Of a stretch of 9,975 nt of DNA, positions 1 to 6,000 are shown one piece after another (position 1 is the stretch's first letter; each line of letters opens with the position of its first letter). A program made the position numbers. This stretch comes from a bacterium (GTDB lineage: Bacteria > Eisenbacteria > RBG-16-71-46), in assembly GCA_043779265.1 (NCBI GenBank), contig JAYWEM010000083.1, positions 1-9,975 on the forward strand. Reading direction: 5' to 3'.

Positions 1-3000
1 AGCGCACGAAGCGGCAGTCCGACCGCGATGAGCAAGGCGAGGAAGACGTCCAGGGGAGTGGGCATGGCCGCGCAGTCTACCCGGCGCGGCGTGCCGGGCG
101 CATGCGCTAGACTGCGGCGCTCCCCCGACTGCCCCTGGCCCCGAGGAGAAGCCCGTGCGCATGCCCCTCACCCGATGGACGCTCGTCGCCTCTCTGACCT
201 TGGCCCTCGCGACGCTGACTTCGGCTCGGCCACCCGAGTCGGCCATCGTCCTCGGCGAGACGCGCCCGCTCGAGACCTCGCTCGGGGACCCCACTCTGGC
301 CACCGCGCAGTCCCTGTGGGTGGAGATGATCGACGGCGCCAAGCGCAGCGTCGATCTCGAGCACTTCTATCTCTCGCACAAGCGGGGCGAGGCACTGCAA
401 CCCGTGCTCGACGCGATCGGGCGCGCCGCCGCGCGTGGCGTGCGTGTGCGCATCCTCCTCGATGCCCGCATGAGCCGCACCTACCCGTGGCCCGCCGACT
501 CGCTGGCGCAACTGCCGGGCATCGAGCTGCGCGGCGTCGACTTCCGCCGACTCTCGGGCGGCGTCCAGCACTCCAAGTTCATGGTGGTCGACGGCCGCGA
601 CGCGTTCCTGGGCAGCCAGAATCTCGATTGGCGGGCGCTCTCGCACATCCACGAGCTGGGCGCCCGGGTCCGTATCGCGCCCGTGGCCGCGGCCATGGGC
701 GACATCTTCGAGACCGACTGGCGCGCAGCGGACACCTCGTATCGCGCCGTCGCGGTCTCGCGCGCCCGGCCGAAGCAGCCGGTGCGCTTCACCCAGGGCG
801 GTGAGCGAGGCGAGGCGATCCTCTCGGCCAGCCCACCCTCCCTCCTGCCGGACGGCGTCCTGTGGGACCACGACGTGCTGCTCGCGCGACTGCGCGGCGC
901 ACGCCGCGAGATCGTGGCGCAGGTGCTGCAGTACGGCATGTCGGCCTACGGCGAGCGCGACTCCTCGATCCAGGAGGCGCTCATCGCGGCGGCCGGGCGC
1001 GGAGTGAAGGTGCGGCTCATCGTCTCGGACTGGGTGATCGGCGATGATGGCGAAGCGGACTTGCGCGTGCTCGCGGCCGTGCCGGGCATCGAGGTGCGCA
1101 TTTCGCGCGTCCCGGACTGGAGCGTTGGGTACATCCCATTCGCGCGGGTCGAGCACCCCAAGTTCATGGTGGCCGACGGAGAGTGGCTGTGGCTGGGCAC
1201 GAGCAACTGGGAGCCCGGCTACTTCACGAGTTCGCGCAACCTCGCCCTGACGGTGTTCCATCGTGGCATCGCGACCCGGGTCCGCCGCGTCTTCCAGACG
1301 AGCTGGGATGCGCCCAGCGCCCACCCTCTGACGCCCACTCTCCGGATGGAGAAACGCATTCGCCGGATGGAGGCTCCCCCGGGAATGCCCGTCTACGGGG
1401 AGTGACCCGGACCTCGGGACCGGAGTTCGCCCTTGCCATTTCAGGGTCAGTGCGATTCCCTCTGGAATCGGATGCAGGTTGGGAAGGAACCCAACTGGCC
1501 GCCACGGTGGACCTCGTCCGCTGATCACCCTCATGAGGAGGAAGTCCATGGAGCGCGAAGTCGAACTCTTCGAGACGTTCTCGGTCGAGCAGATCGCCGA
1601 GGAGACCCGCTCGAGCAGCCCGTTGTACTGGTGCATCAACTACTACTGTTTCCAAGGGAGCTCGAAGTTCTGAGCCCCCGCTGACCGCCTCCACCGCGGC
1701 ACGTGCTCGACGCGAGCGCGTGCCGCGGATCTGTTCTCCGGCACCAATCGCTCCGCGCGCGACGGTCACTGGCGGGGCGGCGGGCCACTCGTTCCTCCTT
1801 GCCTTTTCCTGACGGTTGCGATTGTCTTCCGGCTCGGACGCGAACCGGGAAGGAACCCAGTCCGTTGCCGCGGTGGGCCATGCCCGCCGATCACCCTCAT
1901 GAGGAGGAAGTCCATGGAACGCGAAGTCGAACTCTTCGAGACGTTCTCGGTTGACCAGATCGCTGAGGCGTCGCGAGCTGGGAGTTCCCTCTGGTCCTGC
2001 CTGTACTACTACTGCGGCGGTCCTTCGGACTGAGTCCGCAGCAACGATTGACCGCCGCCGTACCCGCTCGACCCGAGCAGGCACGGCGGCTCCATTTCGG
2101 GATGGGCTCAGGGTTCCGTCCTGGCCTGCCGAAACCGAATCAGGAAGTCGCGGGAGGCTTGCATTTCCGCCCGGATGCAGCTTCTCTCTCGCTGGCTGGA
2201 TCGGATCCGCTCCGGAACACCGATCCTCGGACCCCCCACAGGAGGCATGGACATGGATCGTCAGAACGACACCGTTGAGCTGTTCGAGACGTTCGAGGTC
2301 GAGCAGATCGCGAGCCAGGTGCGTATGGGCCATGGCGACTACTACGGCTGCGAGTTCTGCTACTACCTCATCAAGAGCTGATCGGTCGCGACTCGGGCAG
2401 CGTCGGTGAGGATCTCCCGAGCCCCGATGAGCGCCTGAGACGCCGCCCGAGGAACTTTCCCTCGGGCGGCGTTCTCCTTCCGGGGCGATGGCCGTGTCGC
2501 GTAGATTGACCGCCTGATGAGCGCCCCCCCTTCGTCTCCGCCCCGCCCCGCCGAGGGCCTGCAGTTACTCGAGCTGCCCGAGGGTGGCGCGGAGGCCCTG
2601 CTCGAAGGTGGCACCCGCCGTCTGCACCTCTCCGGGGACGCGAGGTGGCTCCTGGAACACCTCGATGGCCGCATCTCCTACACCGAGTTGGCCGGCCTCC
2701 TCTCACGACACACGGGCCGCTCCGTCGGGGCTGCGGAGGCCGAAGCGCTGGTCGAACGCGTGCTCGTGGCTCCCGGCCTCACGCGCGGTGGCGGCTCCTC
2801 GACCTCCCCCGCGCGCGCGCGGCTGATCACGATCCTCCCGGCCCGGGCCACCGCTCGTCTCTCGCGCATGCTCGCCGCTCCGTTCGCATCGGCCTGGGGC
2901 ATGCCCGTGTCGGCGCTGTTCGCGCTCTGGGCGCTGGCTTGGACGACATGGCCCACGCTGACGAGTCAGTCGGTGTGGTTGGACTGGAGAACCTGGCTGC

Positions 3001-6000
3001 TCGCGCCGATCGCCGTACTCGGCTCCCTCATCGTGCACGAGGTCCTGCACGCGGCGGCACTGGTGGCCGGTGGCGGGACGCCGGGACCCTTGTCGCTGAT
3101 CGTCGGGCAACGGGGCCACCTGCGAGCGGAGTTGCCCGGCCTTGAACGGCTTCCTCGCTGGGCACGCGTGCGTGTCGACCTCGCAGGCACTCACGGGCAA
3201 CTCCTGTTCGCGGCTGCGCTCGCGCTCGCGATGAACAGCATGGGACTCGCGCCGCCTCTCCCGGCGCTCCTCCTCGTTCTGGGTTCCGCACTGATCAACC
3301 TCGCACCGATCGCTGGCTTCGACGGCGGCTATCTCCTCGACGACCTTGCCGACCGACCGCACGGGGACACGAGACGCCGCCCGTTCCCGATCTGGCGCTG
3401 GCTCCGAATGGTTCCCCAACTCGCCGCGACTCGCATCGCTTTGCTGCTGGGTTGGGGGGAATTGGCGGCGATGAAGCGACTGACCGTCGTGATGATGGCG
3501 ACGAGCCTGCCTCACCGAAGTGGCGCCTGGCGCCGTTCCTTCACGGTGCGTCACTTGGTGGCCGCTCAGCATCAGCGACTCGACATGGCCGACGTGGGCA
3601 GGGGACGAGGCGCCGACCTCGTGCTGCATCGGACAGCGTTCCGCAGGTGCCTGCAGCAGCGCCGCGGCGTCGTCGTGTGCAGCATCCACTCCGGCCCGTT
3701 CCCCTACGTCCCGCTGACGCTGGCCGAGGAGGGCGCGCACGTGATGCTCTATGCCACCGCCGACATGCAGCGCATGGGGCAGGCGGCGTGGCAGGCCTCG
3801 GCCGACCGGATCGGCGTTCGCTTCGACGTGCTGGAGCCGACTTCGGTGCGGGATGCGGCCCGCGCCCTGCGCGGGCTCCGTGAGGGCCGCGTCCTCTCGA
3901 TCCTGATGGATGGGCAGCACTCGGCCAATCGTGAGCAGCACCGCACCGACCTGGACTTCCTCGGCGCCGAGTTCTGCATGCGCACGGGTCCCGTCGTGCT
4001 GGCGACGCGGTCGCGCGCGCCGATCGTCCTGGCCGCGACGAGGTGGGAGCATGGCGTGACCCGCGTCGTCGAGTTCAGCGACGTGTTCGAGCCCGCCGCC
4101 TCGGATGACGAGTCAGTCATCATCGAGCGCACGCGCGAGCTCTACCGGTGGTTCGAATCGCGCATCGCATCGCGCCAGCACGAGTGGTCCGGATGGACCA
4201 TTCCGATCCAGCACTGGCGTGAGTCGGGCAGCGCCCCGAAGGCCACCGTCGCTTCGCTCGAGGCGGCCAAGACCCGCTCGCTGCGTGCGCTGCGGGGCGA
4301 GGCGCGCGGCGCGCGGCTCTGGGCGGACGACAGCGTGTGCATGACCTATGGCAAGCCGCCGAACCTGTTGCTCGTCCAGGGCGACGAACGGCGCGTCATG
4401 CGTGGGTCGCTGGAGTCGAGCGCCCTGCTCGAAGCCGCATTCCGCCGCCCGCGTGTCGCCGAGCTGCCGGAGCGACTGGCGATGAACGCCGAGCGGCTCG
4501 CTCCGGAACTTGCGAAGCTCGTGTTGGCGGGCATGGTGCGGCTGGAGGACGGCGAGGACTCAGGCCGGTAGCGGCTCGCCGGGTGACCAACCCGAGGCGG
4601 CGAGCGAGTCGAGCAGCGCGATGACGGCGGGCCGCTCGGAGTGCGAGATGAGCAGCAGGAGATCGCCCTCCCGGGCCCAGGCGAGCGCACTGCGAACCGC
4701 GGACAGTTCGGTCGCATGGTGCTCGAAGTCCTCGGCCGACGCACCCCGGGCTCGCAACTCCGCCTCGATCAGCGCCGGGACCATACCGCGCTCGCGCCCC
4801 CGCAGATAGACGTCCATCTCCTTGATGAACATCCTGCTCGGACGCATCGCCCACGCAGCGCTCGCGTACGCTCGGATGTCGTCGTCGCTGCGATCCCCCG
4901 CCTGCCCGATCACGATGGCCCGCCGCATGGCGGGAATCGCCGCGGCCATCTGGGCCAGCGCCTCCAAGCCGTGCGGATTGTGAGCGAAGTCGACGATCGC
5001 CGCGACGCTGTCGAGGAGCCACCGATTGGCGCGGCCCGGATTCGAAGCCGGACTCGACTCGAAACCCGAGAGCCCATCGCGCATGGCTGCGACCGGAACG
5101 TCGAGGGCCGCCGCCGCGCCGATTGCCGCCAGGGCGTTGGCCACGTTGTATCGCGCCGCCCCTGCGAACGTGACCGGCACCTGATCGACCCGCACGACAT
5201 CGTAACGCTCGCCCGATCTCACAAGGCGCAGCATGTCATTTTCGAGCCAGGCCGCATCGCCGCCCGCTTGCATGTGAGCCCGCAGCGTCTCGTGCGAGGC
5301 ATCGAGTGAGAACCACAGCACCGGGCATCCGAGCGCCAACCCTCTCGCGAGGACGCGCGGATCATCGGCGTTCAGCACCGCACGCCCATCGCCCGTGACC
5401 GCGCGAGTCACGACCAGCTTGGCGTCCGCCAGTGCATCCACATCGAGAATGCCGTACTCGCCGAGATGGTCGTTCGCGACGTTCGTGACAACGGCCGCCC
5501 GGGCATGGGTGATCGGAAGGCCGCGCCGCAGGATGCCGCCTCGCGCCACCTCGAGCACGCCCACCTGCACGCGCCGATCGCGGAGCACGGTGCGCGCTCC
5601 GTTGGGGCCCGAGAAGTCCCCGAGGGCCACGACCTCGCTGCCCACCTCGACGCGGTCGGTGCTCGTGACGCCGGCCACTCGTCCGGCTGCTGCGAGGATC
5701 GCACTGAGGAGACGGACGGTCGTGCTCTTGCCATTCGTGCCGGTGATGAGTACGACCGGAACGTCATGCAGCCCCGACCACCTCACGCGATCGGGCGCCG
5801 TCATCGCGCGAAGCGGCCAACTGCGCGAGCCCTCGCCCAACCCGACCGAGACTCGCCGATCGTCGGAGAGGAACGACAGCCCACGCTGACGCGCGGCCTC
5901 GGCCAGTTCCAGCAATCGCGGCCGAGCCTCCTCGGCGATCGCAGTGCGGAGCCGCGCAAGCGCCTCTTCGAGTGGTGCCGGCGGCTCGCCGTGACCGAGC

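Follow-up and report, generated by a model that had tools for sequence, protein, structure and literature searches.

A protease-acyltransferase fusion locus of Eisenbacteria that probably yields lipid-tagged ribosomal peptides along an undescribed route

What might be made by three tandem genes of about 40 codons that stand directly before the gene of a large membrane enzyme in an Eisenbacteria genome? The window, that is the whole stretch of DNA analysed (9,975 nt of contig JAYWEM010000083.1), had been described in the genome-wide survey's note as a new RiPP-like locus, in which one enzyme cuts the leader from the precursors and acylates their cores. The gene positions given there were reproduced in our analysis:

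161-1405, + strand: PLD-family gene, a flanking neighbour
1548-1673, + strand: precursor 1 (41 aa), with an ELF leader and a probable core of about 19 aa holding Ser, Tyr and two Cys
1914-2033, + strand: precursor 2 (39 aa), an ELF-leader ORF and duplicate of precursor 1
2253-2381, + strand: precursor 3 (42 aa), its core with a CxxC motif and four Tyr
2517-4571, + strand: fusion enzyme (684 aa) of four domains

It is likely that this locus makes an acylated ribosomal peptide, whatever the order of the two steps, and the fat-tagged peptides would probably arise by a route not yet described. The RiPP logic of the earlier proposal stands; its order of cutting before acylating is less likely because the acyltransferase has an RRE of its own.

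The leader motif is ELFxxFxVEEI, and the last residues of the three precursors are F, D and S. A precursor profile was run over the genome in six frames (58,126 stretches) and matched only these three ORFs, which were themselves in the profile, at 51-56 bits, with the next score at 8. Over the first 20 codons precursors 1 and 2 give a dN of 0.066 against a dS of 0.425; the leader is under selection. As is general for RiPPs, a short precursor with a conserved leader and a variable core adjoins its maturase. No NCBIfam family matches the 40 precursors that we aligned, bar one chance match, and none of the curated families does so. The alignment revises two features first ascribed to these peptides: the near-invariance of R3 does not hold, and it is in Ser and Tyr that the cores are rich (22% and 11%; the ORFs of the genome have about 7% and 2%) rather than in Tyr and Cys. 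Ser or Tyr is present in all 40 cores, Ser/Thr being missing from two and Tyr from five; Lys occurs in 17 and is absent from 23, and the core of precursor 2 has neither Lys nor Arg. No residue is common to all 40 cores and no acceptor position is conserved. Cys is found in 18 cores and absent from the other 22, and a Cys-based (Cys/Tyr) mark for the class was rejected on that count; in this genus it is present in eight of eight cores, several times as CxxC or YYC. The boundary between leader and core, placed from the leader alignment and daptide logic, would put the cut at about residue 22-25, and the core so defined often starts with Gly, Ser or Phe.

Each precursor gene is preceded by a GAGGAG/GGAGG site. 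Precursor 2 and its upstream DNA are a copy of the precursor 1 region (a 224-nt repeat, 1425-1648 against 1791-2014, 74%), and the DNA around the precursor genes holds further elements:

1432-1457, + strand: putative promoter-like motif CTTGC-N13-15-GCGNTT before precursor 1
1694-1728, + strand: terminator-like hairpin of 16 bp, 3' of precursor 1
2054-2090, + strand: hairpin 3' of precursor 2, a single fold without shuffle control
2440-2472, + strand: perfect hairpin of 13 bp between precursor 3 and the enzyme gene

A second copy of the promoter-like motif lies at 1798-1823, the pattern itself having been derived from both copies. No sigma-70 consensus site was found, and an Rfam search of positions 1-4700 returned no match at E 0.1.

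In an AlphaFold model of the whole fusion enzyme (pLDDT 93.9, pTM 0.88; a single-sequence prediction, at pLDDT 36.9, was useless) four domains are seen:

2535-2792, + strand: N-terminal RRE (aa 7-92), of three strands and three helices
2835-3374, + strand: M50/site-2 intramembrane zinc protease core (aa 107-286), with H174-E175-x-x-H178 and D269
3453-4232, + strand: acyltransferase of the LpxM/PatA fold (aa 313-572), with H391 and D465
4305-4556, + strand: C-terminal RRE (aa 597-680), assigned by fold match

Both enzymatic assignments of the survey's note are strengthened by these structures. The daptide_HExxH match recurred (E 6.6e-10, 38.7 bits, far under the cut-off of 300), and the M50 leader protease is borne out by intact zinc ligands, HExxH and NxxPxxxxDG, in membrane helices, as in M50/site-2 enzymes, and by fold matches to SpoIVFB (Z 9.3) and RseP (Z 8.8); stand-alone relatives are longer than this core by about 110 aa. 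The Pfam Lip_A_acyltrans match (E 1e-4, aa 375-557) likewise recurred, its score of 22.0 falling just short of the cut-off of 22.3, and an LpxL/PatA fold is supported by structural matches to LpxM (Z 22.4, rmsd 3.2, 245 aligned), which acylates a hydroxyl, and to PatA (Z 21.1, rmsd 3.0, 235 aligned). This is the LPLAT fold, and GPAT/PlsC were matched as well. The N-terminal RRE resembles TbiB1 (Z 7.7), lasso B1 (7.6) and PqqD (7.5), and the C-terminal one TigE (7.8), MibB (7.3), MccB (7.0) and 5wgg (6.9), all of these Z-scores lying below 8, in a range where a common arrangement is possible. The former had been missed in the earlier work and the latter had not been named there as an RRE. An atlas feature search gave scores all below 0.8. 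Against genome G077, dN/dS is 0.22-0.44 across all four domains, the acyltransferase being the most conserved (0.22).

The C-terminal RRE is predicted to bind the ELF leader. As in the first docking, a complex model of precursor 3 with the fusion placed the leader on this domain, its score of 0.64 (best of three controls, 0.01) passing a mark that 116 of 157 solved pairs attain, against 2 of 215 mismatched ones. The model used our own alignments, and the pass may reflect likeness to solved RRE-leader complexes. Runs share at least 78% of contacts, and the partner pLDDT is at least 55. Leader residues 3-23 lie on strand 626-630 and helix 667-671, linker 564-582 takes part, and the peptide core has no confident placement.

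Across 206 genomes the acyltransferase-RRE occurs in 21, with a precursor adjacent in 20 of them, against precursors in one of the 185 genomes that lack it. That the small ORFs are chance neighbours, unrelated to a lipid-modifying enzyme, might be argued from the precursors matching no curated family; such near-perfect co-occurrence and adjacency, together with the selection on the leader and the complex model, makes this very improbable and largely refutes it. That the fusion is the defining unit, as had been assumed, is not supported: split forms outnumber the fused ones, which make up a single clade. As to its rarity, the seven word-search matches and the 614 matches among representatives were found again, and the figure of four full-length representatives was too low, since both domains stand in one frame in eight of the 206 genomes and four more representatives (764-836 aa) span the protease and acyltransferase parts. 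The genome also has housekeeping acyltransferases, from which that of the fusion falls in a separate clade. Precursor and acyltransferase-RRE occur without an adjacent M50 gene in six of the 21 genomes, and in 62 of 80 distant loci the stretch examined contains no M50 gene; the broad alignments are too variable for a locus scan. Distant loci also have an adjacent kinase (33/80), LytTR (32/80) or arginase (10/80), and two of them (L128, L109) a fatty-acyl AMP-ligase-like or ketosynthase gene.

The cassette is flanked by the PLD gene and by cyanophycin genes, the latter standard, on the opposite strand and set aside. The PLD gene, formerly counted as part of the system, is a bystander and was rejected as partner or acyl source: homologues occur in 115 of 206 genomes, of which 99 lack the acyltransferase-RRE, the query finds no match in five genomes that carry it, and seven of eight picked cassette-free genomes keep the order oxidoreductase-CPBP-PLD-DinB without a precursor match. 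The CPBP/Rce1 neighbour, present in 76 of 88 family genomes, was likewise dismissed. There is no acyl-donor gene within the window.

The main doubt raised at first was that the HX4D/E motif has no acid here, the sequence reading H391-S-G-P-F-P; indeed, the six commonest letters at His+5 in 117 homologues include no acid. His is kept in 110 of these at the H391 position (replaced in five) and Asp in 115 at D465. The latter residue aligns to LpxM D198, 12 residues before an aromatic-F-G motif, and E200 of PatA has the same spacing, a match made by spacing and via LpxM rather than by direct residue alignment. In the available portion of the PatA study (PMC4792965) the His has E200 as its partner, the acylated acceptor is a hydroxyl, and H126A and E200A mutants are inactive while D131A retains 37%. 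Given this partner and the Asp at the inferred equivalent site, the missing acid is probably no defect, and the doubt is largely answered. The domain shares with PatA, a mycobacterial PIM acyltransferase, and with LpxM/LpxL the fold, the place of the His and membrane-facing helices, and with PatA an acid at the inferred E200 place; it differs from them in having no acid at His+5, an extra C-terminal RRE and, presumably, a peptide acceptor. An inactive domain that binds membrane or peptide, the product being an unacylated, proteolysed signal or bacteriocin, would fit the missing acid, the sub-threshold Pfam score and the kinase and LytTR neighbours, which suggest peptide signalling. We regard it as improbable: His and Asp are kept across four phyla, the acyltransferase is the most conserved domain and is retained where the protease is not, and signalling is compatible with acylation.

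Acyl transfer to the peptide is what we infer from these features, and the order that we prefer, to which we give a little less than an even chance, is that a Ser or Tyr hydroxyl is acylated first and the leader cut afterwards. The transferase's own RRE, the six genomes in which the precursor accompanies the transferase alone and the 62 distant loci without M50 point this way. After the modelled binding of the leader by the C-terminal RRE, the still-attached core would be acylated from host acyl-ACP or acyl-CoA, with H391 as base positioned by D465. The lipid-tagged peptide would then enter the membrane, where the N-terminal RRE may take the leader and the M50 site cut it. The product of 17-19 residues could stay in the membrane or leave it without a dedicated transporter, and disulfides may join the Cys pairs seen in this genus.

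Alternatively, the M50 site might cut first and the acyltransferase then N-acylate the freed alpha-amine, like the GNATs of lipolanthines and lipoavitides. The N-terminal amine is the sole acceptor common to all cores, the frequent Gly, Ser or Phe at the probable core start would suit it, as would a hand-off within the fusion, and the arginase neighbours, which argue for amine acceptors in their branch, suggest that the fold can take amines; known N-terminal acylation also comes after leader removal, in the accessible text of PMC13647313. However, a leader-binding RRE would be of little use to the transferase after the cut, no M50 gene is adjacent in six of 21 genomes, and the closest solved relatives act on hydroxyls (PatA, same portion of PMC4792965), so that we hold this order to be unlikely. 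Less likely again is a transfer other than from fatty thioester to hydroxyl, namely Cys S-acylation in this genus, phospholipid transacylation, or an acyl group that is short or unusual. The universal Cys of this genus, a cassette without donor gene and the matches to GPAT/PlsC would agree with it; the cores without Cys and the fatty-acyl AMP-ligase-like or ketosynthase genes of L128 and L109, which fit fatty acyl thioesters, speak against it.

Lipolanthines, goadvionins, lipoavitides and aphotorhaptins have dedicated fatty-acid and cyclising genes; no dedicated acyl-biosynthesis or cyclase genes are found at this locus. These families resemble the peptides proposed here as fatty-acylated RiPPs whose leader a protease removes, but use GNATs on the N-terminus where an LPLAT fold stands here, and in the accessible text of that 2026 paper all N-acylated RiPP families named are GNAT-dependent and act on amines (PMC13647313). 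Selidamides (KspN, PhaN, NpuN; PMC8784127, PMC13647313) share with the pathway proposed here a leader-bearing precursor whose side chain would be fatty-acylated from the host acyl pool, and pair with arginases as do distant homologues of the present enzyme. Their enzyme is nevertheless a GNAT rather than an LpxM/PatA fold with RRE, they have LanM, arginase and an NHLP/Nif11 leader, where the window has neither gene and the leader is short, and their acceptor is Lys or Orn, Lys being absent from most cores here. Daptides (MpaP, PMC10028931) share with this locus an RRE-fused M50/site-2 intramembrane protease for leader removal, a tandem set of several short precursors with an acidic E-L leader motif and a second maturase that carries an RRE at its C-terminus. 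Their invariant C-terminal Thr and ELExMEAP leader are absent here, as are, from the window, their aminotransferase, dehydrogenase, methyltransferase and ABC transporter genes; the protease is fused to an acyltransferase, and its daptide_HExxH score is far from the equivalog cut-off. DAG-RiPPs (PMC13056109) are also lipidated ribosomal peptides, made by the host lipoprotein pathway via signal peptide and lipobox; the precursors here carry acidic leaders and have an enzyme of their own. The FlmE/OhkG clusters were discarded as a published match, their precursors being different and an acyltransferase absent from the text. The enzyme type is not described in the titles and abstracts searched, outside subscription literature and patents.

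We tentatively propose, with confidence well below even, that O-acylation of Ser/Tyr in bacterial ribosomal peptides is seen here for the first time, carried out by one four-domain, acylate-then-cut membrane enzyme. This locus would then be the fused extreme of a RiPP class that spans phyla and is defined by RRE-bearing lipid A-type acyltransferases; at other loci their partners would be arginases, radical SAM or lanthipeptide enzymes and, in Bacteroidota, kinase-LytTR pairs, the lipopeptides there serving as signals. If so, an LPLAT-fold maturase with RRE would be a second route to gene-encoded lipopeptides, unrelated to GNATs and possibly giving ester-linked products. The pathway tolerates very different cores and would be a tool for leader-directed lipidation. 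One gene and a 40-residue precursor are about the smallest testable pathway, and cultured Bacteroidota carry homologues, so that the chemistry can be tested.

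The five open reading frames that the genome-wide survey's note had placed in the window (a PLD gene, three precursor genes and a gene for a fusion enzyme) lie where it put them, and its database scores and counts were reproduced. The window, a complete contig, holds:
161-1405, PLD gene
1548-1673, 1914-2033 and 2253-2381, precursors 1, 2 and 3
2517-4571, fusion enzyme (684 aa)
4560-9975, -, cyanophycinase, cyanophycin synthetase and a shorter synthetase-like gene

The model of the fusion enzyme (75-row alignment) has a pTM of 0.88 and a pLDDT of 93.9. Comparison of its domains with 48,161 chains matched aa 313-572 to LpxM (Z 22.4, rmsd 3.2, 245 aligned) and PatA (Z 21.1, rmsd 3.0, 235 aligned), aa 107-286 to SpoIVFB (Z 9.3) and RseP (Z 8.8), aa 7-92 to the RREs TbiB1, lasso B1 and PqqD (Z 7.5-7.7), and aa 597-680 to TigE, MibB, MccB and 5wgg (Z 6.9-7.8), the last segment being about as near to the non-RiPP winged-helix chains NovN (Z 7.3) and Rv2067c (Z 7.1). 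As a Z below 8 may reflect a common arrangement, the RRE assignments depend in addition on context and the complex model. In the protease, all 19 rows of the alignment keep H174, E175 and H178, and 90% or more keep D269; the fused protease is ~110 residues shorter than the stand-alone form. Measured against genome G077, dN/dS is 0.22-0.44 in all four domains.

An earlier doubt about the acyltransferase concerned the missing acid of its HX4D motif. Of 117 aligned homologues, 83 of them from the 80 distant loci and the other 34 from alignment A1, 110 have H in the His column, 4 have R, 1 has T and 2 have a gap, and the six commonest letters at His+5 include neither D nor E, so that the observation stands; the doubt drawn from it is offset by a putative substitute acid, D465, whose column is D in 115 of the 117 and which aligns with LpxM D198 and the D in the LLDQD motif of the housekeeping enzymes. 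According to the available part of PMC4792965, the PatA relay is H126-E200, with either alanine mutant dead, and D131A, at the acid of HX4D, retains 37%; the HX4E glutamate of LpxM is termed catalytic in that protein's PDB title. An aromatic-F-G motif lies 12 residues downstream of LpxM D198 and, likewise, of PatA E200. Given this equal spacing, and the conservation of D465 and its alignment to D198, the H391-D465 pair is probably intact, D465 being the presumptive equivalent of E200. Four acyltransferase-RRE proteins (P0040, P0042, P0044, P0049) lack the catalytic His and retain the Asp.

The acyltransferase-RRE subfamily is present in 21 of 206 genomes of the phylum (173-456 bits, versus 126 for the best housekeeping match). 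A precursor adjoins it in 20 of the 21 and any precursor occurs in one of the 185 others, kin among these genomes not being independent. A 22-row precursor profile, scoring at most 35 candidates in each genome, matches 20 genomes, 14 of them its own sources and six new; five of the new ones have the enzyme, and in the sixth, G109, the precursors are oriented off the contig end. G010 has a divergent precursor, spotted by eye, and in G086 the contig stops inside the enzyme's gene. Protease and transferase are fused in eight genomes and split but adjacent in six (G110, G145, G047, G050, G051, G054); in six more the transferase stands alone beside a precursor, with the protease elsewhere in G102 and G103 and unmatched by one query in G108, G010, G011 and G012 (56-93% complete). 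The fused forms and G086 make up one clade (support 100/100), and the fusion thus arose once. Metagenomes carry precursors at five of seven loci, the remaining two starting inside the gene. In G102 and G103 an RRE-M50 gene (L037 5030-6229; L040 5709-7043) lies near a CPBP gene, on a contig other than that of the precursor and acyltransferase.

The proposed link of the PLD gene to the system did not survive. Homologues at E 1e-40 occur in 115 of the 206 genomes (73 of 88 in the family), 16 of the 115 having the cassette enzyme, and the order oxidoreductase-CPBP-PLD-DinB recurs without a precursor match in seven of eight hand-picked cassette-free genomes; in G085 and G089 the cassette sits between PLD and DinB. 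With 99 of 115 PLD genomes lacking the enzyme and gene order kept without the cassette, PLD was rejected as a pathway member: it marks the place, not the pathway. The start of a CPBP/Rce1-like protease gene (weak match, E 0.23) at window 1-80 (-) runs off the contig; this gene is a near-core neighbour (76 of 88 family genomes). On the other side, the shorter synthetase-like gene overlaps the 3' end of the fusion gene by 12 nt, the cyanophycin gene order recurs in G077, G078 and L134, and a short near-tandem DNA repeat at 6350-6420 encodes YVRDSR twice in the cyanophycin synthetase C-terminal tail.

Each of the three precursor genes has a ribosome-binding site and a downstream hairpin. Precursors 1 and 2 stem from a 224-nt duplication (74% identity), their first 20 codons differing by dS 0.425 and dN 0.066. 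The motif CTTGC-N13-15-GCGNTT, at window 1432-1457 and 1798-1823 and also in L031 and L051, lies 94-116 nt upstream of six of eight precursors of the source genus; it may be the promoter of each precursor, the pattern, with 18 copies genome-wide, having itself been built from these upstream copies.

Genes, folds, residues and linkage are established directly; the seat of the leader on the C-terminal RRE is modelled. In agreement with the docking proposed earlier, the complex model of the acyltransferase-RRE half with precursor 3 scored 0.64, versus 0.01 for the best of three controls, with at least 78% contact agreement between runs and partner pLDDT of at least 55. Of 157 solved pairs 116 pass the score mark, and of 215 mismatched pairs 2 do so, a rough guide only, own alignments having been used, and a passing score may stem from resemblance to solved RRE-leader complexes. 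In the model leader residues 3-23 contact aa 564-582, 611-634 and 667-671, F11-F14 lying on strand 626-630, and the core has no confident placement. A leader laid on an RRE strand is the usual RRE mode.

Taking residues past ELF+17 (an inferred boundary) as the core, 38 of 40 precursors have Ser, 35 Tyr and all 40 one or the other, with Cys in 18 and Lys in 17; two cores lack Ser/Thr and five Tyr. Ser makes up 22% and Tyr 11% of core residues; in ORFs from a crude call on 40 contigs the shares are ~7% and ~2%. The Tyr/Cys richness noted earlier is a trait of the source genus and, with Cys in only 18 of 40 cores, no general mark.

We infer acyl transfer, acceptor, order, cut site and release alike, and tentatively favor acylation on a Ser/Tyr hydroxyl with the leader still attached: the transferase carries an RRE and needs no adjacent protease, and the cores are hydroxyl-rich and often Lys-free, while relatives acylate hydroxyls. 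Cleavage first, followed by N-acylation of the core, would suit cores without a conserved acceptor position and the arginase neighbors of other loci, and stays a strong rival, though the less probable of the two courses. Leader-on hydroxyl acylation would, like selidamide biosynthesis, be a lipidation, and the protease is akin to that of daptides, but the cassette is a member of neither class. GNATs serve in selidamides, lipolanthines, goadvionins, lipoavitides and aphotorhaptins in the accessible part of PMC13647313. The comparison covered available portions of PMC10028931, PMC8784127, PMC13056109, PMC13500794 and PMC12703449; term searches gave no match in the accessible supplements of PMC10036551 or in PMC7470986 and PMC10352776, and an LpxL-type RiPP acyltransferase was absent from the titles and abstracts found, subscription journals and bioRxiv supplements lying mostly outside that scope. 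The system is real and coherent and appears undescribed, a new type of enzyme for products of a known kind.

When GTDB contigs were scanned, 101 relatives emerged, and the 80 top-ranking ones were read. Bacteroidota supply most of these, Acidobacteriota two and a cyanobacterium one. The profile extends over the C-terminal domain in just 39 of the 117 homologue rows, so that an RRE in the Bacteroidota enzymes is putative. Among the 80 loci, 18 have an M50 gene, 10 an arginase, 33 a histidine kinase and 32 a LytTR regulator; short ORFs with a loose leader pattern occur at 25, many IxELEERLEM-type and some by chance. Among 50 scanned proteins, single distant loci also showed an AMP-ligase, a ketosynthase, radical SAM enzymes or a lanthipeptide dehydratase. 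The precursor-acyltransferase-histidine kinase-LytTR unit of Bacteroidota (L066 5436-8714 and ~30 similar loci) looks like a lipopeptide signalling circuit. Arginase adjoins the acyltransferase, split into two pieces in L122, at L055, L058, L068, L071, L078, L095, L106, L109, L122 and L132, several with R-C-x-x-R-C-type precursors; these follow selidamide logic but with a different enzyme fold. Loci of Dysgonomonas and Bacteroides (L056 4545-9781, L063) combine an M50 gene with two acyltransferases and as many as six precursors of Cys-Cys type, and hybrids (L128 4362-10754, L132, L071) are of radical SAM/SPASM plus AMP-ligase, PKS plus arginase, and lanthipeptide dehydratase types. In the cyanobacterial L054 (5649-8367) a precursor whose core is a long Pro-Thr repeat precedes acyltransferase and M50 genes, and in P0081, P0084 and P0105 RRE-M50-like proteins are fused to a polyprenyl synthase or a ParA/MinD-type ATPase.
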